Assembly: GCA_022360905.1 (NCBI GenBank)
Contig: JAKSBX010000065.1
Location: 24,148 to 88,147, forward strand
Source: Chromatiales bacterium
GTDB lineage: Bacteria; Pseudomonadota; Gammaproteobacteria; Chromatiales; Chromatiaceae
Length of the DNA stretch: 64,000 bases
Reading direction: 5' to 3'
Positions 23,713-61,076 of the stretch are shown here, one piece after another. The notes under the pieces are model-generated. The model ran no database searches. It saw nothing but the letters and a program-made list of their open reading frames with translations, and was not told where the DNA came from. A program made the position numbers and the translations under genes. The stretch's first letter is position 1, and every line of letters starts with the position of its first letter.

Positions 23713-26700
23713 ATGATAAATGAAAATCAGGGTTACAAAAACAGAGGCTTGCAGTTTGTTGTATTTCTATGCCTCTCATTTCTGGTTACTACGCTGAATG
23801 CAGCCACTTTGACGATCAATGTGGTTGACCAGTCAGGTAACCCAATCACCGATGCGGATTTTGGATTTCGCTGGATGCTGGAGCGGGATAATACCTTCCC
23901 AGTTGATCCAATGAATCCTGGCACAACCGCTGATGAGTTACTATCGCTCAGCTTTCATGCCAGTAATCATGAAATCGGTGTCGGTACAGACGGCAGTTCG
24001 TTGGCAGGTAATGTCGACGGCAGTACGGCAAGCATTACCGACGATATCATCCCTGCAGGCCGCTATTATGTCTCTGTTCATCCTTACAGTGGTTATAGCC
24101 TGAGCGGTACTTCAGTAGAACTCACCGCAACAGATGCTGGTGTGGTTGAGGTCACTGTCCAGCAGTATCCGATCCCTACTGCACAGATCTCGATCTATCT
24201 GTTCGAGGATAAGCATCCGGTGAATGGTGTTCCGGATCTGCCGGAAGAGCAGAATGACGGCACTGTTGATTGGACTCAGTTCAGCCTGTTCCTTGAAGAG
24301 CCGGGCGGTCGCTACGGTGCCGCTGGCGGTCAGGTGATTCAGGACGCTTTCGGTAACTACCTCGGTACCACCTATGACCAGACCTGTGCTACCAGTAACC
24401 CGGTCGGTACTGGCGGTGATACCCCGGGTGGTATGATCAACGCGACCTGTATCGATGCTGACGGCAATCCGGTTATCGATGTACTGGGTGACGGTACCAT
24501 GCAGCCGGATGAGAACGGCTATCTGAATGTTAAAAACCTTGCGCCCGGCAAGTATGGTGTGGTCATCATTCCGCCACCCAACGCCGGTTGGCAGCAGACC
24601 AGCACCATCGAAGGTAGTAAGGTAATCGACGCTTGGGTCAAGGCCAACGAGCCGGCGGTTTTCGTGGAATTCGGTCTTCCAGGTCCCCATGTCTTCATGG
24701 GTTTTGTGCGTCCTTTCGCCGATCTGCCCCCAGCCCAGCCGGGTGAGCAGGTTGCAACGGTTAGCGGTACCGTTACCGACATGCACATGTCCCGTAACCC
24801 GGCTACCACCTTCTTCACTGGCCGTCCTTTCCCACAATGTTGGGTAGCCATCAACCAGGTCGGTGAGGGTGGCGCCCTGGGTCGCGCCGTCTATGCGGAT
24901 GCCTGTGATGGTGACAGCAACTTCTCTGTGGATCTGGTACCGCCAGGTCAGTATCAACTCGCGGTTTGGGATGCCAACCTGGATGTGGTCTTCGCCTCCT
25001 TGTTGTTCACCGTGGATCCAACCGGTGGTTCCTGTAACGGTGGCACCGTGGCCTCCTGTAGTTTTGGTGATGTGCCGGTATTCAACTGGTTCACACGTCT
25101 CAACACCGGCATCTTCAGGGATGATGACCAGGACGGTTTCTGGGACGACACTGAGATCGGTATCGGTCCTGAGAGTCAGGAGACCGTACTGCGCTGGCGT
25201 GACGGCACCATCTATCAGGCCTTCCCGACGGATGGTGATGGTTTAGCACCTTTTGATGAGATCTTCCCCTTCTTCCACTGGCTGGTTGCTGAAGTCAGCT
25301 TCGGTAACAAGAAAGCCACTGGTGCCACTTTTGTTGTGGACGCCGGTGGTGAAGTTCGTCCGGACGGCGGCTGGGCCGATCCTACCTTTGGCGAGCTCAA
25401 CCCTCAGGGGCAGTGTGAAGCTCGCGGCGTAGGCCATAGCGATATCATTATCTCTGCTACCGATCCTCGCGGTGCTATCGGTGATTGTCTCGGTTCTGAT
25501 GACGGTGGTGTTACCTGGGTTGTTGAAAACGCCCGGCAGATCATCAATCCGAATACCGGTAACAATCTGTCTCGCACCGAGACCGGTCTGGTACTCACCC
25601 AGGGCTTTCAGGGCTTTCTGGGGCAGACCAGTGTGATGCAGTTCGGTAAAGTCGACTATGTGATCGATACCCCGTTTGACTTCACCGCATTTCCTCCAAG
25701 AATTTCCGAGTATGTGGGTGAGAACGGCGGTATCTCCGGTATCGTCTACTACGCCACCACCCGTGCGGAAGATGAGCCTCAGTTCGCTGCGGCCGAGGAG
25801 TGGGAGCCTGGGGTACCACGGGTGCAGCTGGCTCTCTATGCGGATGGTGATGTCAACTGTCCTCCATTGACCAACTTTCCAACTGATCCTTGCGACATCG
25901 ACTGGAATGGTGACGGTATCCAGCAGCCGGACGATGGCGTGATCGAGGATATCAATGGTGAAGCCGGCATCCAACGGGCTGACGTGGATAACCACCCCTT
26001 AGGATGGGTGGACTGTTCGCCAGCTTGTGGTCCTGGTCCAGAAGACGTCGATTACAACGGCAATGGTGCTTTTGATCTTGGTGACGCCTTACAGATCACC
26101 CATACCGACAGCTGGGATGACAATCTACCTACCGGTTGTCAGGGTACCAATAACCCACCAGGTGCGGAGGTTGACCCTGCGGTCGATGATCAGCGCTGTT
26201 TCGATGGTCTGCGTAACTTCAACCAGGTTCGCGATGCACTGTTTGATGGTGGGTATGCTTTTGAAGACTACGACCTTGACCATCTGGCGTCGATTCCGGC
26301 TGCTCCCGGTTATAACGCTGCAGTCGTAGCTGCTAATCTCAGCGCTTTCTACGATGGTCTGAATACCGGCTGGCCGGAGTTGAATCTTCCGGGTGCCTGG
26401 CTCATCCCTGGTGACTATCTGGTTGAATCAGCAACACCTGCCGGTTACAAGCTGGTCAGGGAGCACCACAAGAATGTGGACTACGGCGATGAGTACATCC
26501 CGTCGCTGCAGGCCTTCCCCGCGACCTGCGTGGGCGAAGAAGTGATGGTGCCTCCTTATCTCGCAATGGCCACCAAAGACGGTAGCGGTGAAGCGGCTCA
26601 GCTGATCGCTGGTGTTGAAGCCATCGAGGCGCCTTTCGCCGGCGAAATGAGACCGCTCTGTGATCTCAAGCATGTACCGCTCTCAGCCGGTCAGAATGCG

Positions 26701-29700
26701 GCGGCCGAGTTCTTCCTGATGACCGACGTGCCTAAAGCAGGCAACATCTCGGGCATGATCCTCAACGACCTGGCCAACGAGTTCAACCCGAACTCACCCC
26801 AGTTCGGTGAGAAATTCGCACCGCCTCATGTGCCGATAGCGTTCTACGACTGGAACGGTAATGAGATCAATCGTGTCTATGCGGACAAGTATGGTCGCTA
26901 CAACCTGATGGTTGCTTCGACCACCACGGCGAATCTACCGATGCCATCAGGCATGTCGCCGAATATGCTGGTCTCTTGTATGAACGATGCGGGTCCGATT
27001 CCGAATCCGGATTTTACTGGTGCCGCCGGCGACGGTGTTGATGCCAGTGGTAATCCTGAGTTCATTATCGATCCACATTTCGATACTCAGTACAGCCAGT
27101 TCTGTTACACCTTCCAGTACATGCCGGGTACCATCACCTATCTGGATACCCCGGTTGAGCCGGTGGCTGCCTTTGCCGGTCCGGACCAGTTCCCACTGGA
27201 TTGTGAAGCGCCAACACAGACCCCGGCGATCTCCTCCGTGCTGCGTGAGGTGGTTCCAGCCAGCGGCATCGAAGGTCCTTTCGTGGTCGCCGGTACTGGT
27301 GAGAACATCGTCATCAACGCCAAAGGCCTGACCGCTGTTCGTAACCCGGAATGGGCCGAAGGAGATCCTTTAGCTGAACAGAACATTGATCGGGATTACG
27401 GTTTTGGTACCGTTGCCGGTTCGGTTCTTGTTCAGGATCGGAGTGGTAATCCAGTGACTACCCTGGGTGTCTCAACCTGGAGTGACAACGCCATTATCGC
27501 CTCTACTGCTGGTCTGGCAGCCGGTGAATACCAACTGCTGGTAGAGCACAACAACGGTAGTGTCTCTCCCACGGGTATCACACTGACCGTCGGTATCGCT
27601 GAAGGTGTGGGTCTTGGTAATAACAACTCCACCTATAACGTTGTCAATGTACCAAGCGCCGCCTATCCGACTATCCAGGATGCGATCGGCAGTCTCGATA
27701 ACGGCCTTGGTGGTGTCGGCGCTGGTGACCTGATCATTGTCAGGCCTGGTCTCTACAATGAGATGGTGATCATGTGGAAGCCGGTCAAGCTGCAGGGCTT
27801 TGGTGCCGAGACTACAATCATCAATGCCCGACAGACACCGACAGAAAAGATTATCGCCTGGCGTGAACTGGCTGCCGAGCTGGTTGGTACAGGTACAATC
27901 GACCAACTGCCAGGGCAGCTGGTACCCGTACCTTTCTTTGGTGGCGTTCAGGGTGCACTGGGTGCACCGATCTTCCCCACGGAAGAGGGTGCAGGCATCA
28001 TGGTTGCGGGTAAGTGGACCGGTCCCAACAGGTTCCATCGTAACAACCGCAACCGCTATGCCCGTATCGATGGTCTGAGCATCATCGGCGCCAGTACCGG
28101 TGGCGGCATTGTTGCCAACGGCTACACCCGTTTCCTGGTCATCTCCAATAACCGTCTCACCACTAACTCCGGTTTTTATGGTGGCGGTATCCGCATTGGC
28201 CACTCTACTCTGACTCATGAAATTAATGATGAGGATGATGAGTTCTTCAGACGCGGCTATAACAGCTGGCTTGAAGATCAGGCTGAAGACGGTTTCATGG
28301 CCTATGATGACGCCTTCGCCGACAACATGAATATCCATCATAACGAGATCATCAAGAATGGTGGATTGAATGGCGCCGGCGGTGGTATCTCAATCCACAC
28401 TGGTGCTAACAACTATCGTGTTCGCAGCAACTGGATCTGCGGTAACTTCTCCAAAGGTGATGGTGCCGGTATCGGCCATCTGGGACTCTCCCGCGGTGGT
28501 CAGATCCTGGATAACACCATTATCTTCAACGAGAGCTTCAGTCAGACACCAGGCACCAAGCCTGCCGGTGGCGGTATCTTCGTCGGTGGACTGGCCGGAC
28601 TGCGAGTCGATGAAGAGACTGGCCTGACCCTGTCTCCCGGTTCTGGTAACGTCAACATTCTCGGTAACCAGATTCGGGGCAACCTGGCCGGTGCCGGTGA
28701 TGGTGGCGGTATTGCCATGCTGAGTGTCAACGGTGAGGATATCGCACGCGACCCTGATGTCTTCGGCCGCTGGTATCGGGTAATTGTTGCCAACAACATG
28801 CTGAGCAACAATGTCTCAGGTCTTGCTGGCGCCATCTCTCTGTCAGACAGTGTCAAGACCTACATCCGTTACAACACGATTGCGAACAACGACTCCACCG
28901 CAACCGGTTCACAGGCTTTTGGTATCACTGATCCCAATCAGTCTATCGCCAAACCGGCTGGTGTCGTTGCCCGCTACCACAGTGCAACCATGATGTCTCT
29001 CATCGATGATGACGTTGCAGAAGAGTTCCCTGGCTCGCGGTTTGATGAAGATGATGTGCGGAATCGTAGTGAAGAGCGGATGACTTTCTCTGATCCGATC
29101 AGTCTGGTGGATAACATCGTCTACCATAACCGCTCGTTCTACTGGCGGAATACAGATGATCCAACGACCGTGGTACTGGAGAACGGTCTGGTGCCCGCAT
29201 CCTGCGATAACACCACCAACACAAACTGCGATATCACGTTGGTTAACGTGGAGGACTATACCCAGGATCTGGCAGTGCTGAACGGACACACCGTCAATCC
29301 GGTGCATCCGCAGTACGGCCCGATGTTGTTGCGTCCGCTGCGTAATCTGTTGCAGACCGGTGCATCTGCGGTTGCCAACAACACTTATATTGACGGCTAC
29401 TCAACAGCAAACAATGACCCGCACAACTCGCTTGGTCCGGTGTTTGTCAATGGTCGCTTCAATGAGGACCGTAATGCACTGATCTTCCCAGAGTTCAAAG
29501 TGCTGCAGGCAGCCGGTGCATTCGATGAAGGCGGCAACTTCCTGCAGGTCAACTTCGGTCCGCTCTCTCTGCTCGATATCGACGGTAATACTGCAACAGC
29601 GGATGCCCTTATCGATTATCACTTAGAGGCTGGAAGCCCGGCTATCGATGCGGCTGCCGCATCTGCCGGTACTGGCATCTACTCAACCGATATCGATGGT

Positions 29701-29754
29701 GATGCAAGACCGCAGGGCGCCAGAACCGACACCGGTGCCGATGAGAGGTTGTAA
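23713..29754 (+). CDS. Giant secreted protein (2013 aa): SdrD-B/prealbumin-like repeats, IPT/TIG-like domain, right-handed beta-helix, C-terminal choice-of-anchor-Q-like motif
   Basis: Sec signal peptide; GIFRDDDQDGFWDDTEIG and DxDxNG Ca-binding motifs; TIQDAI...GDLIIVRPGLYNE beta-helix entry; terminal DYHLEAGSPAIDAA...DIDGDARPQG...DTGADE. Confidence 0.8.
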   Translation: MINENQGYKNRGLQFVVFLCLSFLVTTLNAATLTINVVDQSGNPITDADFGFRWMLERDNTFPVDPMNPGTTADELLSLSFHASNHEIGVGTDGSSLAGNVDGSTASITDDIIPAGRYYVSVHPYSGYSLSGTSVELTATDAGVVEVTVQQYPIPTAQISIYLFEDKHPVNGVPDLPEEQNDGTVDWTQFSLFLEEPGGRYGAAGGQVIQDAFGNYLGTTYDQTCATSNPVGTGGDTPGGMINATCIDADGNPVIDVLGDGTMQPDENGYLNVKNLAPGKYGVVIIPPPNAGWQQTSTIEGSKVIDAWVKANEPAVFVEFGLPGPHVFMGFVRPFADLPPAQPGEQVATVSGTVTDMHMSRNPATTFFTGRPFPQCWVAINQVGEGGALGRAVYADACDGDSNFSVDLVPPGQYQLAVWDANLDVVFASLLFTVDPTGGSCNGGTVASCSFGDVPVFNWFTRLNTGIFRDDDQDGFWDDTEIGIGPESQETVLRWRDGTIYQAFPTDGDGLAPFDEIFPFFHWLVAEVSFGNKKATGATFVVDAGGEVRPDGGWADPTFGELNPQGQCEARGVGHSDIIISATDPRGAIGDCLGSDDGGVTWVVENARQIINPNTGNNLSRTETGLVLTQGFQGFLGQTSVMQFGKVDYVIDTPFDFTAFPPRISEYVGENGGISGIVYYATTRAEDEPQFAAAEEWEPGVPRVQLALYADGDVNCPPLTNFPTDPCDIDWNGDGIQQPDDGVIEDINGEAGIQRADVDNHPLGWVDCSPACGPGPEDVDYNGNGAFDLGDALQITHTDSWDDNLPTGCQGTNNPPGAEVDPAVDDQRCFDGLRNFNQVRDALFDGGYAFEDYDLDHLASIPAAPGYNAAVVAANLSAFYDGLNTGWPELNLPGAWLIPGDYLVESATPAGYKLVREHHKNVDYGDEYIPSLQAFPATCVGEEVMVPPYLAMATKDGSGEAAQLIAGVEAIEAPFAGEMRPLCDLKHVPLSAGQNAAAEFFLMTDVPKAGNISGMILNDLANEFNPNSPQFGEKFAPPHVPIAFYDWNGNEINRVYADKYGRYNLMVASTTTANLPMPSGMSPNMLVSCMNDAGPIPNPDFTGAAGDGVDASGNPEFIIDPHFDTQYSQFCYTFQYMPGTITYLDTPVEPVAAFAGPDQFPLDCEAPTQTPAISSVLREVVPASGIEGPFVVAGTGENIVINAKGLTAVRNPEWAEGDPLAEQNIDRDYGFGTVAGSVLVQDRSGNPVTTLGVSTWSDNAIIASTAGLAAGEYQLLVEHNNGSVSPTGITLTVGIAEGVGLGNNNSTYNVVNVPSAAYPTIQDAIGSLDNGLGGVGAGDLIIVRPGLYNEMVIMWKPVKLQGFGAETTIINARQTPTEKIIAWRELAAELVGTGTIDQLPGQLVPVPFFGGVQGALGAPIFPTEEGAGIMVAGKWTGPNRFHRNNRNRYARIDGLSIIGASTGGGIVANGYTRFLVISNNRLTTNSGFYGGGIRIGHSTLTHEINDEDDEFFRRGYNSWLEDQAEDGFMAYDDAFADNMNIHHNEIIKNGGLNGAGGGISIHTGANNYRVRSNWICGNFSKGDGAGIGHLGLSRGGQILDNTIIFNESFSQTPGTKPAGGGIFVGGLAGLRVDEETGLTLSPGSGNVNILGNQIRGNLAGAGDGGGIAMLSVNGEDIARDPDVFGRWYRVIVANNMLSNNVSGLAGAISLSDSVKTYIRYNTIANNDSTATGSQAFGITDPNQSIAKPAGVVARYHSATMMSLIDDDVAEEFPGSRFDEDDVRNRSEERMTFSDPISLVDNIVYHNRSFYWRNTDDPTTVVLENGLVPASCDNTTNTNCDITLVNVEDYTQDLAVLNGHTVNPVHPQYGPMLLRPLRNLLQTGASAVANNTYIDGYSTANNDPHNSLGPVFVNGRFNEDRNALIFPEFKVLQAAGAFDEGGNFLQVNFGPLSLLDIDGNTATADALIDYHLEAGSPAIDAAAASAGTGIYSTDIDGDARPQGARTDTGADERL

Positions 29755-29897
29755 TCATGAAAATGATCGACACACATGCAACTGAAAAGCGCCAGCCTGT
29801 CACCATGGACAATATCCTGGTTACAGGGTGGAACAAACTTCGCAAAACCACATTAGGTGAGTCAGGCGCTTACAAAATGACGAGGAGTAAACGCCCT

Positions 29898-31223
29898 ATG
29901 AAACTATTTAGTAAGCAAGCCCTTGCCGGGGCGATCGCCCTGGCACTGTTGGGCATCTCTGGCCAGGCTAGTGCCATTGTCAATGTACAGTGTCCTGGAG
30001 ATAACAACGGTGATGCAGACTGGAATGATGCTGGCGAATCCCAACCAGCGAATACCAAGTGTATACATCTGATTGCAGGCGACAGTTTTGCAAAAATGTC
30101 GGACGGCAACCCCTTGTACACCTTCGGTTTCGGTGATCAGACAGGGACACCCCCCGATCAGGTTATTGGCGAAGGTATCCTCAGTGCCGAGTGGCCAGGA
30201 CCAACCATCGAGTTGGATGAGGGAGATCAGTTCTATCTCAACCTGACCAACGTGGGTACGGTGATTCGGCCCGATCTGTTCGATCCGCACACCGTCCACT
30301 TTCATGGTTTTCCGAATGCGTCTGCAGCATTTGACGGTGTACCCGAGGTCTCGATCAGTATCAACATGGGATCGACACTGACCTACTACTACAACATTGT
30401 CGAGCCTGGCACCTACCTCTATCACTGTCACGTGGAGGCCACCGAGCATATGGAGATGGGCATGTTGGCCAACCTGTTTGTGCATCCGATACAGGACGAA
30501 CTGGGTTGCTTCGATATCGGCGCCGACAACCCTGGCACTGCGGACTACGATCCTGAAAGAGTACCAAATGGCAATTGTGCACCTGCGGTAGGTGATGCGG
30601 GTTACGTTTACAATGACGGTGATGGCACCACGGCATTTGATGTGGAGAAGGCGATCCAGCTTTCAAGCTTTGATCAGGTGTTCCACGATGCCAGCCTGTT
30701 TGTCCAGCCTCTGCCATTTGCTCTACTGGAAGGCAACTATCCACAGCTTAATGGCCGCGGTTATCCCGACACTGTCAATCCAAATGCACTTCCTGCTCCT
30801 GTAGATTCAGTGGATCCAATCACTGGCGGTACCGAGGGTAAGGTCACCGGTACGGTAGGAGAAGAGTTGACTGATGGTGCCATTACTCAGTTTCTGGGTT
30901 CCGATATCAGTGTCAATCAGGGTGAAAAGCTGCTACTGCGTCTCTCCAACGTGGGTCTGGATCGTTTCTGGACCATTACCGCGATGGGCCTGACCATGAA
31001 AGTGGTAGGCACAGGTGCGAAGCACATGCGGGGAACCGACGGCAAGAATATCTATCGTGAGGTTGCCTCCTATAACTTCGGTGGTGGTGAAACAGTCGAT
31101 CTGATCATCGATACCACTGGAGTTGCCCCCGGCACCTACTTCCTCCACGCAACTGAAGTCCATCAGATGAGTAATGCGACCCAGATGGATGGTGGCATGA
31201 TCACTGAGATCGTTGTCAACTGA
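29898..31223 (+). CDS. Two-domain multicopper oxidase subunit A (type 1 Cu site and half trinuclear ligands in domain 1; domain 2 degenerate)
   Basis: HTVHFHG (30288-30308) and YHCHVEATEHMEMGM (HCH at 30423). GAGGAG SD and a signal peptide support the start at 29898; the track ORF starts at 29757. Confidence 0.88.
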   Translation: MKLFSKQALAGAIALALLGISGQASAIVNVQCPGDNNGDADWNDAGESQPANTKCIHLIAGDSFAKMSDGNPLYTFGFGDQTGTPPDQVIGEGILSAEWPGPTIELDEGDQFYLNLTNVGTVIRPDLFDPHTVHFHGFPNASAAFDGVPEVSISINMGSTLTYYYNIVEPGTYLYHCHVEATEHMEMGMLANLFVHPIQDELGCFDIGADNPGTADYDPERVPNGNCAPAVGDAGYVYNDGDGTTAFDVEKAIQLSSFDQVFHDASLFVQPLPFALLEGNYPQLNGRGYPDTVNPNALPAPVDSVDPITGGTEGKVTGTVGEELTDGAITQFLGSDISVNQGEKLLLRLSNVGLDRFWTITAMGLTMKVVGTGAKHMRGTDGKNIYREVASYNFGGGETVDLIIDTTGVAPGTYFLHATEVHQMSNATQMDGGMITEIVVN

Positions 31224-31241
31224 GCCTGGCCGAACTAGGAG

Positions 31242-32681
31242 ATGAGATTAATGAAACAACTACTCAAACAACCTGGACGGCTTTTGGGCCTCCTGTTTTT
31301 GGGCATGAGCAGTGCGCTGACTGTGCAGCAGGCACAGGCAGAGCACGATATCCGAGGTATCTCACAGGGTGCCAATGGTGTTTTCAACCTCTATGCCTAC
31401 CCATTCAATATGAACCTGCCCGAGGGTACCAGTCTCTACATGTGGGGCTTCGGTGATCTGGATCTGGGTGAAGGCGCTTCCCATGATGCGGGTGCCAACT
31501 ACCAGTTGCCACAGTACCCCGCGCCGACACTGATCGTTACCGAGGGCGAGGCGGTCACCATCAACCTGGTGAACTATGGTGTGCCGGACAATATCTCCAT
31601 TGAGATGACCGGTCACGAGATCGATTCTCAATGTATCGATATTCCTGCACCAGGTGGTCCGACTCCGACTACCGGTGCGACAAACTGTACAGCCGGGCTG
31701 TTTACCAACGAAGCTGCTGTTGGCCAGGCCGTCAGTTATACCTTCACAGCGGGTTCCCCCGGCACCTATGTCTACCACAGTCTGGCAGGCGCGAACCCCG
31801 GGCTGCATACCGAGATGGGTCTGGTAGGGGTTATGGTTGTCAGGCCTGCTGATTTCGATCCAATCACAAACCGGACGGCCTACGGTGCCGGTACAGGAAC
31901 CGATTACGATCATGAGAATCTCTACCTGATGACCGAGGTGGATCCTGACATCCATATCCAGATGGAGAAGGGACACTACAACCACTTCACCAACACCGAT
32001 CGCTATGCCAAGGTTTGGTTCATCAACGGCCGGGTCTTCCCGGATCTGTTCCAGGGTGACTACAACACCCTGTTTCCCAACCAGCCTTATGAAGCCCTGG
32101 TCATGTCGCGTCCCGGTGATGTGGTCCTGGTACGCAACGTCAATGCAGGGCAGGATCCTCATCCCATGCACTACCATGGTGAGAACCTGCGGTTCATCGG
32201 CCGTGACGGCAAGATGTTGAGTTCCGATGGTTTGGTTGCCAACCTGGGTCGTTCGGACAACACCACCAACTCGGCACCAAAGCAGACAATTGATGCCCTT
32301 TGGACCTGGACAGGTAAAGACCTGGGTTGGGACATTTTCGGTCACGATACCGGACACAACTGTATCGATGTCAATCCGCGTGATGGATATGCAGATGCCA
32401 ACTCCGACTACCCCGGTGAGTGGTGTAATGACCACAACAAGCCAATTCCTGTCTCACTGCCTGGTGTGGGTGATCTGACCCTGGGTGGCTGGTGGAGCGG
32501 TAGCCCCTTCCTCGGGGACACCGGCGATCTGCCTCCTGGTGAGGGTGGTCTGAATCCGTTTGGTGGCTACTTCCTGGTGTGGCACTCCCATGCTGAAAAA
32601 GAGCTGACCACCTTTGACATCTTCCCTGGCGGAAGCCTGGGCTCAGTCGTTGTGCTGCCTCCTGGTACACCAATCAATTAA
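31242..32681 (+). CDS. Two-domain multicopper oxidase subunit B (trinuclear ligands only in domain 2; no type 1 Cys)
   Basis: Signal peptide; YPAPTLIVTEG and GTYVYHS in domain 1; HPMHYHG (32160) and WHSH (HSH at 32583) in domain 2. Confidence 0.88.
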   Translation: MRLMKQLLKQPGRLLGLLFLGMSSALTVQQAQAEHDIRGISQGANGVFNLYAYPFNMNLPEGTSLYMWGFGDLDLGEGASHDAGANYQLPQYPAPTLIVTEGEAVTINLVNYGVPDNISIEMTGHEIDSQCIDIPAPGGPTPTTGATNCTAGLFTNEAAVGQAVSYTFTAGSPGTYVYHSLAGANPGLHTEMGLVGVMVVRPADFDPITNRTAYGAGTGTDYDHENLYLMTEVDPDIHIQMEKGHYNHFTNTDRYAKVWFINGRVFPDLFQGDYNTLFPNQPYEALVMSRPGDVVLVRNVNAGQDPHPMHYHGENLRFIGRDGKMLSSDGLVANLGRSDNTTNSAPKQTIDALWTWTGKDLGWDIFGHDTGHNCIDVNPRDGYADANSDYPGEWCNDHNKPIPVSLPGVGDLTLGGWWSGSPFLGDTGDLPPGEGGLNPFGGYFLVWHSHAEKELTTFDIFPGGSLGSVVVLPPGTPIN

Positions 32682-32697
32682 TCGGGAGGGCACAAAC

Positions 32698-35600
32698 ATG
32701 AAAAGGTCTACTACCATGAAGCAAACACTGAAACCCATCGTAGTCGCCTGTGCCTTGGCTTTAGGTGCCGGACAGGCGAATGCATTGGATGTCTATCTCA
32801 TTGCTAAAGAGTTCACCCAGGACCTGCCCGGGGTTGCAGCAGTGGATGATCCCACCATGTGGGGTTATGCTCTGGATCCTGCAGGTGCCTGTTATAATGG
32901 TGGCGCCCCCGATGTGCTCGGTGCGGCCTGTACCGGTCCGGTGGCGAGTGCACCCGGTCCACGGATTGCCATCGATCCGGCAGATCCTGTCTTGAATATC
33001 TACCTGACCAACATGCTCACTGAAGAGACATCCATTGTGGTGCCCGGTCAGCCACTGCCTCATGCGGGCGGTGCGATGGGGCCCACCTGGAATGACGGCA
33101 GTGTCAGTAGCAGCCGCGGCGGCAACCTCGCTCTGAAGATGCGTTCTTACGGTCTGGAAGCGGCAGCCAACGGCGGCACACAGGTCTACACCTGGGATGC
33201 AGCCAACCCAATCGACAATAGCGGTTCGTTCATCTATCACACCGGCACCATGCCTCAGAAGCAGCTCTATATGGGCCTGTATGGTGCTGCCACCAAAGAT
33301 GCTGCTGTCGGCAATGTACTTTATGATCTGGATGGTACGGTAGGAAATGCAGATGATGTGACCTACGCCAACGAACTGATCCTTTTCTACAGTGACATCG
33401 ATACTCACTTCAATGAAGAAGTGGTAGCTGGAACTCTGCAGACTGCGATCGAGCGCCATCCTCAATGGTATATGATCAATGGTCAGCCTTATCAGGCAGG
33501 ATTTCCAGACATCCAAACAGGTGAGGGTGGTCTGCCGTTGACAACTTCCGGGCCAACCCTGCTGCGCTTCATCAGTGCGGCAACTGAAAAGCATGTGCCT
33601 GTTCTGCAGGGCCTCTACGGTACCATTCATGCTGAGGACGGAATCCAGTATACCTACGAGGATGATACCGGCGTCCATGCCGCACCGGTTGAGCAGTATT
33701 CTGTCGGCCTGCCTCCACTGAAAACCAGGGATGTCATCATTCAGCCCACCTTCAGTGGTCGGTATGCGATCTATGACGGCAACGGCAACATGACCAACCC
33801 GAGTGATCCTGAAGACTTCAATCAGGGCGATGAGATCGGTGGCATGCTGCGGTTCCTTGGCTTCAATGTCGGTGCCAACCAACCACCGATTGCCAATGCG
33901 GATCCAATCACCATCCAGATTCCTGAAGATCTGGGGGCCGCAACTACCTCATATCAGGTCACGGAAAACATTGATGTGTTGGCTAATGATATGGACCCGG
34001 ACGGTGATACCATCACACTGGGCACTCTCATCGGATTGCCGGATACCGGATCCATACCTGGTTTGACGTTGCAATTTCAATGTATAACAGGAACCAGTTG
34101 TGATCTATCTCTTGATTCGGCCGTTCCACCCAGTGTGGTTGGTGGAGAAACAGCTCAGTTCCAATATGAGATCACCACAGCGGCTAATCCTACGCCTGTT
34201 CAAGGTAGTGTGGATCTTACGGTTGAGGTTAATGCGGCACCTGTCCTGGCTACCGCACCACAGATCGTAATTACCACAGACGATCTGGTTGCTGATGTGG
34301 CTACCATCAATCTGGCGGATCTGGTGGCGGATGCAACCGATGCGACCGCCGGTGATACGGTAAGCGTATCGGATACGCCTCCCGTTGCCATCGCAGCCGT
34401 GCCTGCAACCACCGCAACGCTGGTGGGTTGTGACTACGTGGCAGGTACCTGCAGCATCAGCTTTGCAAGTACATCGGCACCAGCCCAGTTGAACCTGGAT
34501 TTCGCCATGACCGACGGTCTGAACCTGGTTGAGGGTCAGTCAGCGACTGTCTCCCTGGCCTTCCCTGGACCAACGCTGTTTGATGATACAACCACGCTGG
34601 ATCAGGTTGGCGCGCTGGATCTCGACGTGAACGATGTCAACCTGCCGGCCAGTTACGGTCTGGCTTTGGCCACACCTCCGTCAGCCGGTACTGCGACTGT
34701 GGAAGACGACGGTACGATTACCTATACCACAACCGCAGCGCCGTTTACCGGTGATAGCTTCACCTACTGTCTGACCAGTGCACCAGGGGATGATGTCTGT
34801 CTGGCAACTCCGCCTGCAGCAACGGTTACCATCGATCCTGCTCCGGCATCCGGATTGATCGCAGTCGGTGGCAAGACCTATACCGCTGATGAGGATTCGA
34901 TCCTTGACGTACTCGCAGCTAACGGTCTGTTGATAGGTGAATCAGCCATCAATGGCGGTACTCTGGCAGTAGTCGTGGATAGTGCACCGACCTGTGCCAA
35001 CACCGCAGCCGGTAGCTTCACCTACGATGGTGCGACTGGTTCCTTCCACTATGAACCTCTGCTGGATTGGAACAGCGTCAATCCTCCGGTGGATGACGGA
35101 GATGCCTGTACCTTGAATGACACCGCAGGTGCCAGAGGTGCCGACACGATCGTCTACCATCTGGAAGAGACCTACGATGATGGCGGTACTTTGGTAACCA
35201 TCAGTAGTAACACAGTGACGGCAGAGATTACTGTCAATCCGGTCAACGATGCACCGGTAGCTGTGAACGATACGTTCTATGTCCAGGATGCCTCTACAGC
35301 TGTAACGGATGGACAAGGTGAGCCAATATCTATGACCTTCAGTGTTGCACCAGCTGGGGTTCTCGGGAACGATACCGATCTTGAGAATGACAGCCTGCTG
35401 GCGACCGAAGTGAATGATCCTGGCAACCTGCCTCCTGCACTGGGGATCGATGGTTCCATACCAAGCTTTGCTATCAATCCCACGGCGGTCGGTGTTCTGA
35501 ACACTATCGAGTATCAGGCAAGCGATCTCGTTGCTCAGAGCAATACCGCTACTGCAGACATCGTGCGTCAGGTCTCGGTTACCCGGGCCTCCTATCTGCA

Positions 35601-35955
35601 GCGTGGCACTGCCGGTACTGGCAATGACAGATGGCGCATCAGAGGTCTGGTTGATACGACCATCCCAACCACAGGTACTGCACAAGGCGTACGGGTTTAC
35701 CTGGTACGGGTCGATATCAACGGGACACCATCGCCACGGGTTGAGATCGTTCCCACAGCGACTGGCAATAACAACGGTCGTATCCGGTCTGTCGGTGGAC
35801 AACATGTCTGGGGTATCAACGTCAACGGTGTTGGTAACAATCGACCTGAAGTTGAATTGCCAGATGGCAATGACTATCTGGAAATTGAGGTGGTTGATTT
35901 AGTCACCTACCCCGAGGCTGTCTACAACAACGTACCACTTGATATCGAGCCATAG
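32698..35955 (+). CDS. MCO-like subunit C: two nearly ligand-less cupredoxin domains plus cadherin-like/Ig (Big_9/VCBS-type) repeats
   Basis: APGPRI, GSFIYHTG, MINGQPY cupredoxin scaffold motifs, then NQPPIANAD, NAAPVLA and VNDAPVAVNDTF Ig repeats. GGGAGGG SD precedes ATG 32698. Confidence 0.8.
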   Translation: MKRSTTMKQTLKPIVVACALALGAGQANALDVYLIAKEFTQDLPGVAAVDDPTMWGYALDPAGACYNGGAPDVLGAACTGPVASAPGPRIAIDPADPVLNIYLTNMLTEETSIVVPGQPLPHAGGAMGPTWNDGSVSSSRGGNLALKMRSYGLEAAANGGTQVYTWDAANPIDNSGSFIYHTGTMPQKQLYMGLYGAATKDAAVGNVLYDLDGTVGNADDVTYANELILFYSDIDTHFNEEVVAGTLQTAIERHPQWYMINGQPYQAGFPDIQTGEGGLPLTTSGPTLLRFISAATEKHVPVLQGLYGTIHAEDGIQYTYEDDTGVHAAPVEQYSVGLPPLKTRDVIIQPTFSGRYAIYDGNGNMTNPSDPEDFNQGDEIGGMLRFLGFNVGANQPPIANADPITIQIPEDLGAATTSYQVTENIDVLANDMDPDGDTITLGTLIGLPDTGSIPGLTLQFQCITGTSCDLSLDSAVPPSVVGGETAQFQYEITTAANPTPVQGSVDLTVEVNAAPVLATAPQIVITTDDLVADVATINLADLVADATDATAGDTVSVSDTPPVAIAAVPATTATLVGCDYVAGTCSISFASTSAPAQLNLDFAMTDGLNLVEGQSATVSLAFPGPTLFDDTTTLDQVGALDLDVNDVNLPASYGLALATPPSAGTATVEDDGTITYTTTAAPFTGDSFTYCLTSAPGDDVCLATPPAATVTIDPAPASGLIAVGGKTYTADEDSILDVLAANGLLIGESAINGGTLAVVVDSAPTCANTAAGSFTYDGATGSFHYEPLLDWNSVNPPVDDGDACTLNDTAGARGADTIVYHLEETYDDGGTLVTISSNTVTAEITVNPVNDAPVAVNDTFYVQDASTAVTDGQGEPISMTFSVAPAGVLGNDTDLENDSLLATEVNDPGNLPPALGIDGSIPSFAINPTAVGVLNTIEYQASDLVAQSNTATADIVRQVSVTRASYLQRGTAGTGNDRWRIRGLVDTTIPTTGTAQGVRVYLVRVDINGTPSPRVEIVPTATGNNNGRIRSVGGQHVWGINVNGVGNNRPEVELPDGNDYLEIEVVDLVTYPEAVYNNVPLDIEP

Positions 35956-36643: not shown

Positions 36644-36665
36644 TCCGTTGACTCGAGAAGGAAAT

Positions 36666-39600
36666 ATGCAATATAGAAATCATCTGCTTGGTTTTCTAAC
36701 AATACTCGGACTGGCCTCTTCATTTGAATCCCATGCGGTAGTGACCGTCTATTGCTGCGATGCAACAGCCGAGGCTCAATTTATCCAGGATCTTTCGAAT
36801 CTACCATCTATCTCGACAGACATCACTAAAGAGAGCTTTGAAGGCAGCGACTGGGACGGCACTCGCACTACCGGTGTTCAGAGTGTGACTTCCCAAGGCA
36901 TTACCTGGGCGGGCAGTTCCACGGAATCCTCTTTTGTACGTACTTCCACCAGTGGTGGTGACGTGCATGAAGGCAGCTATCTGATGTTCCCAGTGGACAA
37001 CAGAAACGATCACCTGATACCCGATAAATACACGCTGACCGCCAGTGGTACCACGCTGTATGGTGTTGGCGGCTGGTTCCGCAGTAGTACCGGGGCAAAG
37101 ATCGGTTTTACCACCAACGGCTCGGCTCCGGTCGATTTCACCGGTGCAGACGCCACAGTGTCCGACTGGACCTTTCTCGGTTTCATCGATGATGCCGGTT
37201 TTACCACGGTACTGGTAGAGGCTGTGGATGAAGGGGGAGATGAGGTCAATATCTTCTTCTCGGATGATTTCACACTGGGTGCCCAATCCGGCGCATTCCC
37301 CGGACAGAAACTGCAGTTCAGCAGCGCCACCTACAGTGTGGCTGAGAATGCCGCTACGCTTCAGATCACCGTGGAACGCACCGGTGGTACCAGTGGCACA
37401 CTCTCCGCTGACTATGCGAGCGATAGTGAAAGCGGTACAGCGAGCGCCAATCAGGACTACACGCCGGTTTCGGGAACACTCAATTTTGCTGATGGTGAGA
37501 GCAGTCAGCAGATTACCATCGATATTCTGGATGACACCGTCTTCGAGGATAGTGAGAGCTTTACGATCAATCTGAGCGGTCTCAATATCGGCGCGCAAAA
37601 CAGTGCCACGGTGACCATCACCGATAACGATGCGCCGGCGGTGGGACAGGTGCAGTTCAGCAGCAGCAACTATACCTTCAGTGAAGGAGACGGCAGCGTT
37701 ACCATCACCGTACAGCGGGATGGTGGCAGTTCCGGCAGCGGTTCTGTGGATTACGCCATGAGCGATGGGACAGCAACGGCAGGCAGCGATTACACAGCCG
37801 CCTCCGGTAGCCTGTCATTTATCGATGGTCAGATCAGCAGCAGCGTGACTCTGGACATCACAGATGATGCAACGGCTGAAGGTACAGAGACGTTGCTGAT
37901 CACCCTATCGAATCCGGTATCGGTATCGCTGGCCGCCAGGGATGTTGCAGAGGTCTCTATTACCGATAACGAGCCGGTTTCGAGCTCGGGAAGTCTGCAG
38001 TTCAGCGGTTCAAACTATACCGCCGCGGAGAGCGATACATCGATACAGGTGCCCGTGACCAGGACGAATGGGAGCAGTGGGGCCGTTTCCATCGTCTGCT
38101 CTACCAGCGATCTTACAGCCACGGCAGGGTCCGACTATACGGCTACTCAAGCAACGGTCAATTTTGCTGATGGTGAACTCACCAGCAACTGTGTGATACC
38201 TATTCTGGATGACAGCAGCTACGAAACCGATGAGACTCTGATGGTCACGCTTGCAACGCCCTCTGGTGGTGCCGTCCTTGGCACACCGGCATCAGCGGTA
38301 GTGACCCTGAGCAGCGATGACTCGATACCCGCCATGGGTAGTCTGCAGTTCAGCCTCTCGGAGTATCAATTGAATGAGGATGGCGGTACAGCCACGATTG
38401 CAGTTTCCCGCTCAGGAGGTAGCAGTGGTGCCGTCGGGGTCAGCTACGCTTCCAGCGATTCCACGGCAACGGCTGGTGAGGATTACACCGCTGCATCCGG
38501 CAGCTTGAGTTTTGCCGATGGCGTAACCAGCGGATCATTCCAGGTATCACTCCTCGATGACAGCGAATACGAGGGGGATGAGCGGGTCACGCTGACGTTG
38601 AGCAATCCAACCGGTGGCGCCGTGCTGGGGCAGACCTCTCAGGTTGATTTGGTGATCAGCGAAGACGATCTGGCACCGGCAACCGGCCTGCTGGTTTTCA
38701 GTGCCAGCGACATTGGCGCGGACGAGGCGGATGGTCTGATTGAGGTAACGGTGGAACGTCAGGGTGGCAGTAGTGGCGCTGCACAAATCAACTATGCAAC
38801 TGCAGATGGCACTGCAATTGCTGGTATCGATTACCAGGTGGCCAGTGGTACCCTTATGTTTGCCGATGGTGAGCTGTCGAAGACATTTGAAGTCACCATC
38901 ATTGATGATGGTCTATTCGAGGGCACAGAGACCATCAATCTGATTCTCTCGGATGCGGTTGGCGCATCACTGGGTGAGACCGCTACGGCAACCATCAGCG
39001 TCACGGATGATGACGAGCCGCCTGCGGCCGGTTCCCTGATCTTCTCCAATTCAGCCATCACAGCGGCTGAGGATGGTGGCGACGTCACCGTTACCGTTTC
39101 ACGCAGTGGCGGTTCAACCGGTGCCGTATCGGTTGATTACAATACGGCGGATGGCACTGCGATTGCCTCTTCAGACTATACCTACACCTCCGGCAGCATC
39201 AGTTTTGCCGATGGCGATGCAGCCGATAAGACCTTTACTGTCCCACTGTTGAACGATTCTGCCGTGGAATCCGATGAGACCATCTTGTTACAGATGAGTA
39301 ACTTTCAGGGTGGGGCGGTAGCCGGTGATCAGAGCAGCGGTCAGATTACCATCACCGATGATGATGTACTCAACGCATCTACCGTAATCGGTTTCACCAT
39401 CACCAGCCTTACTGTGAATGAATCTTCAGTCAATGCGAGCTTCACTATCGATCGTAGTGTCGTTCTGACCGGCACGGTCAGTGTCGACCTGAGTGTTGGT
39501 ACATCAACCGCTGTTGCCGGTAGCGATTTCAATGTCACCACAGGAACTCTGCAGTTTGCCAGTGGCGAGACGCAAAAGACAATCAATGTGGAGATCATTG

Positions 39601-39881
39601 ACAATACGGTTGTTGACGGAGACCGGACAATTACCTTTGTCCTGGGTAATGCGTCCGGTACCGCGACCATCGATAGCAACAGTGGCAGCTTCACGCTGAC
39701 CATCTCCGATGATGATCAGGATGGCGGCAGCGATGGAGATGACAATGGCGGCGGTGGAGGTGGCGGATCCGCTGATTTGTTGCTTCTGCTGGGCTTGATG
39801 ATCCTATTCTTTGGTTATCTGCAGCTGCAGAATGCCCGCCAGGCTCGAGCCTTCGCAAAACGTCGTGTCGAAGAGCAGTAA
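36666..39881 (+). CDS. Calx-beta repeat surface protein (7 repeats) with C-terminal GlyGly-CTERM sorting signal
   Basis: Signal peptide; seven LQFS..Y...E...ITV.R.GG...DY...SGTL.FADG repeats; C-terminus GGGGGGSADLLLLLGLMILFFGYL...KRR. Confidence 0.88.
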   Translation: MQYRNHLLGFLTILGLASSFESHAVVTVYCCDATAEAQFIQDLSNLPSISTDITKESFEGSDWDGTRTTGVQSVTSQGITWAGSSTESSFVRTSTSGGDVHEGSYLMFPVDNRNDHLIPDKYTLTASGTTLYGVGGWFRSSTGAKIGFTTNGSAPVDFTGADATVSDWTFLGFIDDAGFTTVLVEAVDEGGDEVNIFFSDDFTLGAQSGAFPGQKLQFSSATYSVAENAATLQITVERTGGTSGTLSADYASDSESGTASANQDYTPVSGTLNFADGESSQQITIDILDDTVFEDSESFTINLSGLNIGAQNSATVTITDNDAPAVGQVQFSSSNYTFSEGDGSVTITVQRDGGSSGSGSVDYAMSDGTATAGSDYTAASGSLSFIDGQISSSVTLDITDDATAEGTETLLITLSNPVSVSLAARDVAEVSITDNEPVSSSGSLQFSGSNYTAAESDTSIQVPVTRTNGSSGAVSIVCSTSDLTATAGSDYTATQATVNFADGELTSNCVIPILDDSSYETDETLMVTLATPSGGAVLGTPASAVVTLSSDDSIPAMGSLQFSLSEYQLNEDGGTATIAVSRSGGSSGAVGVSYASSDSTATAGEDYTAASGSLSFADGVTSGSFQVSLLDDSEYEGDERVTLTLSNPTGGAVLGQTSQVDLVISEDDLAPATGLLVFSASDIGADEADGLIEVTVERQGGSSGAAQINYATADGTAIAGIDYQVASGTLMFADGELSKTFEVTIIDDGLFEGTETINLILSDAVGASLGETATATISVTDDDEPPAAGSLIFSNSAITAAEDGGDVTVTVSRSGGSTGAVSVDYNTADGTAIASSDYTYTSGSISFADGDAADKTFTVPLLNDSAVESDETILLQMSNFQGGAVAGDQSSGQITITDDDVLNASTVIGFTITSLTVNESSVNASFTIDRSVVLTGTVSVDLSVGTSTAVAGSDFNVTTGTLQFASGETQKTINVEIIDNTVVDGDRTITFVLGNASGTATIDSNSGSFTLTISDDDQDGGSDGDDNGGGGGGGSADLLLLLGLMILFFGYLQLQNARQARAFAKRRVEEQ

Positions 39882-39899
39882 CATAAAAGGGTACATACG

Positions 39900-40700
39900 A
39901 TGGATAAGAGAGCATGGATTAACGATTCGATTGAAAAGTGTTTCAGTGGCTTGCTAAAGGCATCTGTACTTTCGGTTGCCATGTTCGCCACTTCCGGAGT
40001 CAATGCCGCCGAATTGCCAAGCATTGTGAAATCCAACGCTGATAAACCCCTTGGTCCACAGTTCAAACTCGACTGTGTCACCAAGCCGGGCAAGCCTCAG
40101 AGTCTCGGTGATCGTTTTAAAGTAGCCATGAACATGCATGACCATTCCCAGCACAGTGGTCACGATGAACATGCCCATCACCGTGCCATGATGGAGGACA
40201 AGTCGTACAAGGTAAATCATGCCAGCTATCAGATACCGGATGTAAATCTGACCTCTCACAAAGGGGAGCAACAGCAACTGGCGGATATCCTGAACAATGA
40301 CAAGCCGGTGATGCTGAACTTCATCTTCACAACCTGTACCACCATCTGCCCGGTTCTGTCGGCCAGTTTTCACCAGGTACAAGAGATTCTGGGTGATGAG
40401 GTAGATAGCGTTTCCATGGTATCGATCACCATCGATCCGGACTACGACACGCCTGAACAGTTGATGAAATATTCGAAAAGATTCAAGGCAGGCGAACAGT
40501 GGAATTTTTATACCGGCAGCTACAAAGATGTGGTTACCGTAGAAAAAGCCTTCGATATCTTCCGTGGTTCAAAAATGAATCACGAACCGATTACCCTGAT
40601 TAGGGATCAAGGTGGACAGCACTGGACGCGTATCAATGGTCTGGCCAGTGCAGAAGATATTGTTAAGGAGTACAAAAAGATCGTAGCGGCTGCAAATTGA
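39900..40700 (+). CDS. SCO1/SenC family copper chaperone with His/Met-rich N-terminal extension
   Basis: FIFTTCTTICP (CxxxC), MNHEP conserved His, ITIDPDYDTPE, and MNMHDHSQHSGHDEHAHHRAMM. Confidence 0.92.
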   Translation: MDKRAWINDSIEKCFSGLLKASVLSVAMFATSGVNAAELPSIVKSNADKPLGPQFKLDCVTKPGKPQSLGDRFKVAMNMHDHSQHSGHDEHAHHRAMMEDKSYKVNHASYQIPDVNLTSHKGEQQQLADILNNDKPVMLNFIFTTCTTICPVLSASFHQVQEILGDEVDSVSMVSITIDPDYDTPEQLMKYSKRFKAGEQWNFYTGSYKDVVTVEKAFDIFRGSKMNHEPITLIRDQGGQHWTRINGLASAEDIVKEYKKIVAAAN

Positions 40701-58040: not shown

Positions 58041-58524
58041 GCTTAGTTCGCCACAGAAGACGATTAATTCCTCGAATGCGCGGATACCTGTTATATAAGG
58101 TTCACACGGATAGTGAATTAACTATATTCTCTGTACATATTGGGCGATATGCTGACTACTACTACCAGTGGATGAGGTCTATTACTACCTTGGGTGCAGT
58201 GAATGGGCTTCCTAGGCAGTCAGTATGAATTCTTAACTGATTGTTATTGTTGAGTATATTTCCTTTTAAAGATTACTCTGGACTGTAGCTGTCATGGTAG
58301 GGTTTTTATGCATCAAAGGTAAGGAGTTACCCCATATGCAAATACACCCTCCCATCAATCATACTATTTAAGAATTTCTGCTGAGATAGTGTAAGGAGAT
58401 TTCTGATCAGATCGGAGGCAATGGATTGAGTTGATTCTGCTGCTGTGCAATAGCATTGAATAGCTGTCAGGACTTAGGTTAACGAATACTTGCGATAGTG
58501 TAGGAATTGATCACAGGAAAGCCA

Positions 58525-60750: not shown

Positions 60751-60816
60751 GCACGATCCAGGAATAGGGCTCAGCAATTTAAAATGCTAGTCTGTTCATT
60801 ACTTTGGTTAGGATTC

Positions 60817-60929
60817 AGGGAAGCTCTGATCGATTCACTTTCGTCATCCCGGCGAATGCCGAGATTCAGGATAACTAAGCACATGGATTCCGGTATCCAC
60901 AGGAATGACGGATTAATCAGAAGTTCCTT
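60817..60929. repeat. REP/MITE-like palindromic element, copy 2, between gspD and gspE
   Basis: Imperfect terminal inverted repeats AGGGAAGCTCTGATCGATT / GATTAATCAGAAGTTCCTT enclose CGTCATCCCGGCGAATGCC...GGAATGACG. Confidence 0.7.
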
Positions 60930-61076
60930 AGCAAATACCCACTGCTGATCTGTCGTGATTTCTACTGTCTACCGTTTGTAATGTGGCGCTCAAGGATCCA
61001 ACTCATTGTTACGCTACACTAGATTGTAGCGATACAATGGGTATGAAACTTTCTGCAGTTCGAAGACAGGCACGGG

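Follow-up and report, generated by a model that had tools for sequence, protein, structure and literature searches.

Two-domain multicopper oxidases (MCOs) hold their copper between subunits: in the structures of SLAC, 3g5w and 2zwn, each cluster is shared by two adjacent protomers, one contributing its domain 1 and the other its domain 2. The oxidases 3g5w (Nitrosomonas europaea blue copper oxidase) and 2zwn (metagenomic mgLAC) form homotrimers in which every copy of the single subunit has a full set of ligands, giving three trinuclear clusters. Ceruloplasmin, hephaestin and the A domains of factors V/VIII form a pseudo-three-fold ring of six cupredoxin domains, in which the sole trinuclear cluster sits where the first domain meets the last and the remaining interfaces are degenerate. 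In this work, we analyzed gene C, which lies directly behind two MCO genes, A and B, in a 64,000-nucleotide stretch of a Chromatiales genome (GCA_022360905.1, contig JAKSBX010000065.1, positions 24,148 to 88,147 of the forward strand), hereafter the window. Since C always stands beside these two half-equipped copper oxidases, it is most likely the inert third subunit and tether of a so far undescribed extracellular oxidase made of three proteins. On the sequence evidence and by analogy with the known rings, C probably completes an A-B-C ring with one trinuclear cluster and one type 1 (T1) copper site, and serves as its attachment subunit.

The trimeric ring of 3g5w and 2zwn, with its inter-protomer clusters, is the template for the proposed assembly, and both enzymes share the two-cupredoxin fold and the size of C. 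However, three paralogs with one possible cluster are found here instead of one subunit repeated three times, and C is devoid of copper ligands and carries a tail of ~700 amino acids (aa). The ceruloplasmin-type proteins are single polypeptides, whereas the unit here is spread over three two-domain genes, one of them free of metal ligands, and the homology shown for C to these enzymes is that of the general MCO fold.

Oxidases with accessory subunits offer another comparison. The Bacillus Mnx complex combines MnxG with the accessory subunits MnxE/F (PMC12016527), and the fungal NLAC/POXA3 heterodimers consist of a catalytic MCO and an accessory subunit (PMC10443355). Like A-B-C, they pair a catalytic MCO with non-catalytic partners encoded nearby, but their accessory subunits are small and not MCO paralogs, and their catalytic chain has a complete copper set. 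By description, the gene cluster in the window matches Slit_1812-1818 of Sideroxydans lithotrophicus ES-1, with two MCO-motif proteins, a larger motif-less third, small hypothetical proteins, SCO1/SenC and a cytochrome. All three cupredoxin proteins of that cluster rise on magnetite, and the large motif-less one, Slit_1816, is the most differentially expressed of them; it is uncharacterised and no subunit role has been proposed for it (PMC12016527). Slit_1816 has adhesin- and polysaccharide-lyase-like domains, and the cluster proteins are predicted to be extracellular (PMC12016527). Compared by description only, its polysaccharide-lyase-like domains resemble a C fusion protein described below and not the cadherin-like tail of C. 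Our literature search gave no relevant report of a two-domain MCO built from different subunits, be it a heterotrimer or another heteromer, and the only mention of this cluster type that it found was the Sideroxydans study. The "heterotrimer" of PMC11761707 is irrelevant, because it denotes proteolytic forms of one gene product.

Copper ligands are divided between A and B

Domain 1 of A contains the full T1 set and half of the trinuclear ligands (H178, H181, H183, H223-C224-H225, H231 and M236), which are invariant in 23 orthologs and align with the domain-1 ligands of 3g5w, while domain 2 of A is degenerate. The other half of the trinuclear ligands is found in domain 2 of B (H310, H312 and H448-S449-H450), where they are likewise invariant and match those of 3g5w in the alignment. 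Facing each other, these two domains would give one live interface, and therefore B domain 1 and A domain 2 are left unpaired. By analogy with the homotrimers, what would close such a ring is exactly a third protomer whose two sides are both dead.

In domain 1 of B, the T1-like residues H179, S180, H189 and M192 are invariant in the 23 orthologs, with Ser in place of the Cys. This constellation cannot be a blue copper site, given the change from Cys to Ser. Because these residues are strictly conserved despite the lost Cys, they may serve a different purpose where B and C are proposed to meet.

The N-terminal module of C folds as a two-domain oxidase

The first-pass annotation of this DNA, made from the sequence alone, described the N-terminal ~390 aa of C as a two-cupredoxin scaffold. 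Our results bear this out. AlphaFold2, run on a 48-sequence alignment, folded the N-terminal module (~360 aa) into two cupredoxin domains with a predicted local distance difference test (pLDDT) score of 84 and a predicted template modelling (pTM) score of 0.83. The top three Foldseek matches of this model were 2zwn (E 6e-17, TM 0.72 on the target), 3g5w and 9cck, all with E values around 1e-16 and target TM scores of 0.67-0.72. The first two are type-C two-domain oxidases, and 9cck is a two-domain MCO of Nitrosopumilus. As modelled, residues ~30-390 of C therefore fold as a type-C two-domain MCO, and the cupredoxin folds on which the annotation had staked its claim are indeed adopted.

Residues 1-390 had no Pfam or NCBIfam match, and BLASTP to the neighbouring proteins was only marginal. 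Profile comparisons were more informative. A C-family profile from 33 clean orthologs matched the multicopper oxidase 3zx1 (E 4e-5), and Pfam Cu-oxidase_3 (PF07732) was matched by 44 of 64 distant C-family representatives. In hhalign, the C family aligned to the B family with 99.5% probability (E 1e-22, over C residues 9-349) and to the A family with E 2e-5, which makes B the closest paralog. The sequence comparison thus identifies the C module as a paralog of B. All five scaffold motifs that had been pointed out (GPRI, GSFIYHTG, MINGQPY, EKHVPVLQG and GRYAIYDG) were found in C.

C has lost its copper ligands across the whole family

No HxH or HCH motif is present in the first 400 aa of C, as had been noticed before; the His in this part, seven in number, are all isolated, and C has no Cys between residues 79 and 461. 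The ancestral ligand positions were mapped through the alignments to A and B. In domain 1, the HxxHxH motif has become T111/V114/P116, the HCH motif H181-T182-G183, and the T1 His and Met correspond to Q189 and M192. In domain 2, HxxHxH reads H299/V302/Q304, and HxH reads D360-G361-N362, preceded by Y359. The T1 ligand set is thus replaced by T111, T182 and Q189, with only M192 retained, and none of the four trinuclear HxH motifs is left (V114/P116, H181/G183, V302/Q304 and D360/N362).

The same loss was seen across 134 C-family representatives. Position 114 is Val, with His in 2 of the 134; positions 116 (Pro) and 183 (Gly) are never His; positions 302 and 304 are V/T and Q; and positions 360-362 read D-R/G-R/N. 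Because this ligand loss is family-wide, canonical binding of T1 or trinuclear copper is excluded for C. C should not be filed as an oxidase either, because the ligands that define one are missing.

Other residues are strongly retained. The truly conserved positions are Q189, M192, G193, E313, D314, D360, T366 and N367. Among them, Q189, M192 and G193 are kept in 128-131 of the 134 representatives (with a single aligned exception at Q189), E313 in 127, and position 360, which is the first-His position of the ancestral HCH/HxH, is Asp or Glu in every aligned sequence. The four most conserved stretches of C include those that stand in place of the old copper motifs. This pattern is compatible with either a retained inter-protomer interface or a remodelled non-copper site, and it indicates that the C module is under constraint and not decaying.

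The isolated His behave differently. The annotation had claimed that the first His of the ancestral HCH is retained in domain 1, and that such single His could form auxiliary metal or substrate sites. The first part is true of this protein, where H181 aligns with H223 of A and H179 of B, but it does not extend to the family: His occupies column 181 in only 70 of the 134 representatives, the others including Q in 37, E in 11, R in 4 and Y in 3. H299, H311 and N362 are not conserved across the family either. The auxiliary-site proposal was not borne out. A H464, the counterpart of H181 at the proposed interface between C domain 1 and A domain 2, varies too, and since the two vary without co-varying, the retained single His look like relics and not like ligands.

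A, B and C are inherited together

The linkage of the three genes was followed through the relatives of C. Whenever a fetched locus included sequence 5' of C, B was its immediate neighbour on that side, and wherever the contig reaches further upstream, A and a giant gene of ~2000 aa precede B. The A-B-C order is kept in relatives of 28-37% identity, one of them with a bare C of 337 aa. Across 151 genomes of the same order, C was found in 37, B in 38 and both in 37, with matching copy numbers. The window genome has exactly one C, and G344, of the same family, carries two near-identical B-C pairs on separate contigs (C1:114961-117576 and C4:1737309-1739924). In a class-wide sample, the system occurred in 11 of 400 genomes from 10 genera, and a B-like gene directly 5' of C was seen in at least four further families.

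These data, all of them indirect, are in line with the proposal that C joins A and B as a third partner without catalytic function, since it agrees with the adjacency, the co-occurrence, the complementarity of the six half-sites and a fusion of C to the giant. This fusion came from the class-wide genome sample: at one locus of G738 (L087; G738:C48:52000-71000, minus strand), A and B are followed by a single open reading frame (ORF) of 2759 aa (L087:5164-13443). The encoded protein has a signal peptide, a C-type module (residues 16-502, C-family hidden Markov model (HMM) E 8e-41) that retains H181, Q189, M192 and D360, and a body in residues 695-2727 that corresponds to the giant (giant-family HMM E 1.6e-262). 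No separate giant gene was found within ~2.7 kb upstream of A at this locus, and a homolog of the small gene downstream of C comes after the fusion. In the manner of a Rosetta-stone protein, the fusion argues that the C module is physically tied to the giant of its operon. Among ~260 C-family proteins searched by BLASTP and with the giant-family HMM, no giant-like tail was found.

G320 and G352, two genomes of the same genus, carry only a much more divergent version of the B-C pair (e.g. G320:C118:53444-55403), where C was matched with E 1e-41 in a 426-aa frame and B with E 3e-62 in a 551-aa frame. This pair points to the existence of a second system subtype in the genus. In eight "MFD" contigs from metagenome-assembled genomes (MAGs) (L051, L055, L061, L062, L065 and L067-L069), the C genes contain 1-14 in-frame stops or frame changes, which are most likely long-read assembly errors and not signs of pseudogenes; these genes were left out of the alignments. 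A 949-aa ORF in L041 that looked like an A-B fusion was rejected as an alternative-frame artefact, the A and B matches lying in different frames.

The tail of C is an exchangeable adhesin-like extension

Behind the cupredoxin module, Ig/cadherin-like repeats followed by a distinct C-terminal domain had been proposed, and Pfam, AlphaFold2 and Foldseek all agree with this. The stalk (~565 aa) is rich in Ala, Thr and Asp (13.6, 13.3 and 10.3%), holds four Cys pairs and matches Cadherin_4 (PF17803; 62.5 bits, cut-off 25.1) and Big_9 (PF17963; 44.3 bits, cut-off 23.6). AlphaFold2 predicted the whole tail as all-beta, with beta-sandwiches arranged like beads on a string (pLDDT 85, pTM 0.44), and the best Foldseek matches were cadherin ectodomains with several extracellular cadherin (EC) repeats, such as protocadherin EC1-6 (E 3e-14). 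The count of about five domains in the stalk plus the terminal one was estimated from the strand pattern, and the boundaries are approximate. Residues 956-1085 had no Pfam match and only chance-level sequence matches in PDB, and outside a subset of Thiodiazotropha this terminal domain is not conserved.

Within the family, the tail varies widely. The shortest orthologs are bare modules of 337-397 aa and the longest measures 1171 aa, and relatives carry TSP3, He_PIG, CshA, FG-GAP, DUF11/CLIPPER, PKD, CBM96 or HYR modules instead, so by sequence the tail is interchangeable or missing. A rigid arm stiffened by calcium had been put forward as a defining part of C; it is not supported in that role, as the tail varies from absent to more than 700 aa and is swapped in relatives, and clean calcium-type NDxDxxxD motifs occur at only two places (residues 430 and 891), compared with about five linkers. 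Bacterial cadherin-like and Big_9 adhesin stalks, including a matched RTX protein, share with C the repeated beta-sandwiches, the NDxDxxGD-type motifs and the extended chain. Unlike them, C has two clean calcium motifs, no RTX, anchor or sorting module, and a head derived from an enzyme.

Proposed assembly and alternative explanations

We propose the following model, which is built on the ligand pattern and on the known rings. The sole O2-reducing cluster would be built from domain 1 of A, with its T1 and HxH/HCH ligands, and domain 2 of B, with its HxH/HSH ligands. The other four half-sites, all dead, are both domains of C, domain 1 of B and domain 2 of A, and they would find partners only if C closes the ring. 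The outcome would be an unfused equivalent of a six-domain, single-cluster oxidase. Copper oxidases are often exported folded, so the signal peptides of A, B and C (29757-32784), all of the Sec type and none twin-arginine, are unusual. Because they carry Sec signals, the three proteins should be exported unfolded and loaded with copper in the periplasm, where the SCO1/SenC protein of the operon would come in. Copper loading and assembly would take place there, and release would probably follow through the neighbouring type II secretion system. Since C is catalytically inert, its C-terminus would be free for lineage-specific extensions: here about five cadherin-like domains and a terminal beta domain, elsewhere none, another beta-sandwich adhesin module, or the giant. 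Such an extension would hold the oxidase at the cell surface, at a solid or polymeric substrate, or at a partner protein, for which the giant is the most likely candidate. What the tail binds may be the giant, a Calx-beta protein or a solid substrate.

Several points weigh against this proposal. The ring order A->B->C->A is deduced from analogy, not observed. H181 of C and H464 of A show no co-variation in 19 paired loci. One of the 151 genomes, G436, has a weak B-like match but no C match. Among the 150 best of 2377 C-family representatives, no B-C or C-A fusion was found, and the match begins at the N-terminus in all but one of them, which has a 215-aa leader. At the other end of the protein, the C-terminus of the tail shows no recognisable membrane anchor or sorting signal, and with only two canonical calcium motifs, a calcium-stiffened rigid arm is plausible by analogy only.

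As an alternative, C could be an independent secreted adhesin or binding protein that works in the same pathway but outside the A/B oligomer, with a dead cupredoxin pair that now serves, on top of an Ig-like stalk, as a head for binding a ligand, a metal or a mineral. The tail modules of the family are typical of adhesins (Big_9, cadherin, CshA, FG-GAP, DUF11/CLIPPER, PKD and CBM96), the A-B-C assembly is itself inferred, and C evolves faster than its neighbours, with 36-57% identity to the window protein at most loci compared with 54-77% for A and B. However, A and B alone would leave four ligand-less half-sites unpaired, and we know of no two-domain MCO fold that works other than as a closed three-fold ring. 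The bare C proteins (337-397 aa), which have no adhesin tail, still hold the A-B-C position, and the most conserved stretches of C include the copper-motif counterparts that line the inter-protomer interface. We therefore regard an independent adhesin as unlikely.

A further alternative keeps C in the ring, and is in that respect compatible with the proposed assembly, but gives it an active part: its remodelled sites would bind a non-copper metal or a substrate such as Fe(II) or Mn(II), which would make C the substrate-entry subunit. Acidic residues bind the metal substrate in Fet3p and ceruloplasmin. In C, the candidates would be Q189/M192 in domain 1 and E313, D314 and D360 (possibly with H299, Q304 and N362) in domain 2, facing H179, H189 and M192 of B, an assignment we hold only tentatively and think improbable. 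Q189, M192, E313 and D360 persist in at least 127 of the 134 representatives despite the loss of the copper ligands, D360 sits where the first His of HCH/HxH used to be, and the opposing residues of B domain 1 (H179, S180, H189 and M192) are invariant, all of which speak for such a role. On the other hand, the conserved residues of C may be purely structural or belong to the interface, and H181, H299, H311 and N362 vary across the family. An active C of this kind thus seems quite unlikely. That C is a decaying, functionless duplicate of B, as the loss of all catalytic ligands might suggest, is extremely improbable, since its frame is intact, the family comprises 1622 clusters at 50% identity (E <= 1e-10; 879 at E <= 1e-30) with invariant columns, its position and co-occurrence are strictly conserved across classes, and its Sideroxydans counterpart was detected as a protein (PMC12016527).

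Returning to C as the inert protomer that closes an A-B-C ring, the proposal can be pushed further. A, B and C might form an obligate heterotrimer, an unfused intermediate on the way from two to six domains, in which C is a copper-free adaptor: its interfaces at Q189/M192 and E313/D314/D360 would be the entry for substrate or electrons, and its C-terminus would sit on the beta-helix scaffold of the giant for the oxidation of solid or polymeric extracellular substrates. Taken as a whole, this elaborate version is doubtful. An intermediate between the homotrimeric two-domain oxidases and the six-domain ceruloplasmin-type enzymes has reportedly been proposed before.

To our knowledge, multicopper oxidases have been described as single chains or homotrimers. 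If the proposed assembly is true, there is a widespread triad in which the O2-reducing centre is split over two proteins, while a copper-free paralog closes the ring and carries the targeting module. This would be a new quaternary design for multicopper oxidases, and the origin of six-domain, single-cluster oxidases from two-domain trimers would become directly testable. It also gives a structural hypothesis for the magnetite-induced cluster of Sideroxydans and bears on the extracellular oxidation of solid minerals. The system is experimentally accessible through cultivable carriers, e.g. Thiorhodococcus mannitoliphagus DSM 18266 and Sideroxydans lithotrophicus ES-1.

Gene features and neighbouring genes

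The features of the locus are collected in Table 1. A protein 100% identical to C is known from a MAG and is annotated merely as "Ig-like domain-containing". The ribosome-binding site lies 3 nucleotides past the B stop and 8 nucleotides 5' of the C start codon, in a gap of 16 nucleotides between the two genes. An alternative in-frame TTG start at 32614 is disfavoured; the ATG at 32698 is preferred because all C orthologs begin with the same MKR...MK N-terminus. In the signal peptide, residues 13-23 were modelled by AlphaFold2 as a helix of low pLDDT, and its sequence has no twin-arginine motif. A lipoprotein reading of the "VVAC18" stretch was rejected, as this Cys occurs only in Thiodiazotropha and falls within the hydrophobic core of the signal peptide.

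Table 1 Features of the A-B-C locus and its surroundings in the window.
Feature	Position	Strand	Details and basis
Giant first gene of the operon, 2013 aa, beta-helix/adhesin-like	23713..29754	+	conserved upstream of A in loci
Gene A, two-domain MCO	29757..31223	+	Pfam Cu-oxidase_3/_2/Cu-oxidase
Gene B, two-domain MCO	31242..32681	+	Pfam; domain 2 live, domain 1 degenerate (H179-S180)
Ribosome-binding site GGGAGG	32684..32689	+	read from the sequence
Gene C ORF	32698-35955	+	1085 aa; ATG 32698, stop 35953-35955; Ca. Thiodiazotropha
C Sec-type signal peptide	32698..32784	+	residues 1-29, ending in GQANA before LD; from sequence, kept in orthologs
C pseudo-MCO cupredoxin domain 1	32785..33393	+	~residues 30-232; AlphaFold2, Foldseek, hhalign to A and B
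C pseudo-MCO cupredoxin domain 2	33394..33867	+	~residues 233-390; AlphaFold2, Foldseek, hhalign to B
C stalk, ~five cadherin/Big_9-like beta-sandwich domains	33868..35562	+	residues 391-955; Pfam, AlphaFold2, Foldseek
C-terminal ~130-aa beta domain and stop	35563..35955	+	residues 956-1085; strands predicted by AlphaFold2
Small membrane-anchored protein, one transmembrane helix	35969..36643	+	C-terminal ~110-aa conserved domain; no Pfam match
SCO1/SenC gene	39900-40700		in operon
GspD/E/F (type II secretion) genes	58507-64000		

Homologs of the giant are annotated as beta-helix, choice-of-anchor Q or pectate-lyase-like proteins. The small membrane-anchored gene stands 3' of C in nearly all loci, including those of distant relatives and the one with the C-giant fusion, and its product may belong to the core as a fourth component or act in assembly. 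Further downstream, most loci carry a large Calx-beta/subtilase protein, SCO1/SenC and cytochrome c, and in the window a cytochrome c fusion gene is present alongside SCO1/SenC.

The large downstream protein differs between loci. In the window (36648-39881, + strand), it consists of seven Calx-beta repeats and has no subtilase domain, and its positional equivalents elsewhere combine Peptidase_S8 with Calx-beta, with or without a MopE copper-binding domain. A separate protease with S8 and Calx-beta domains is encoded at 55137-58040 (- strand) of the window, beside gspD/E/F. Type II secretion genes also adjoin distant C loci.

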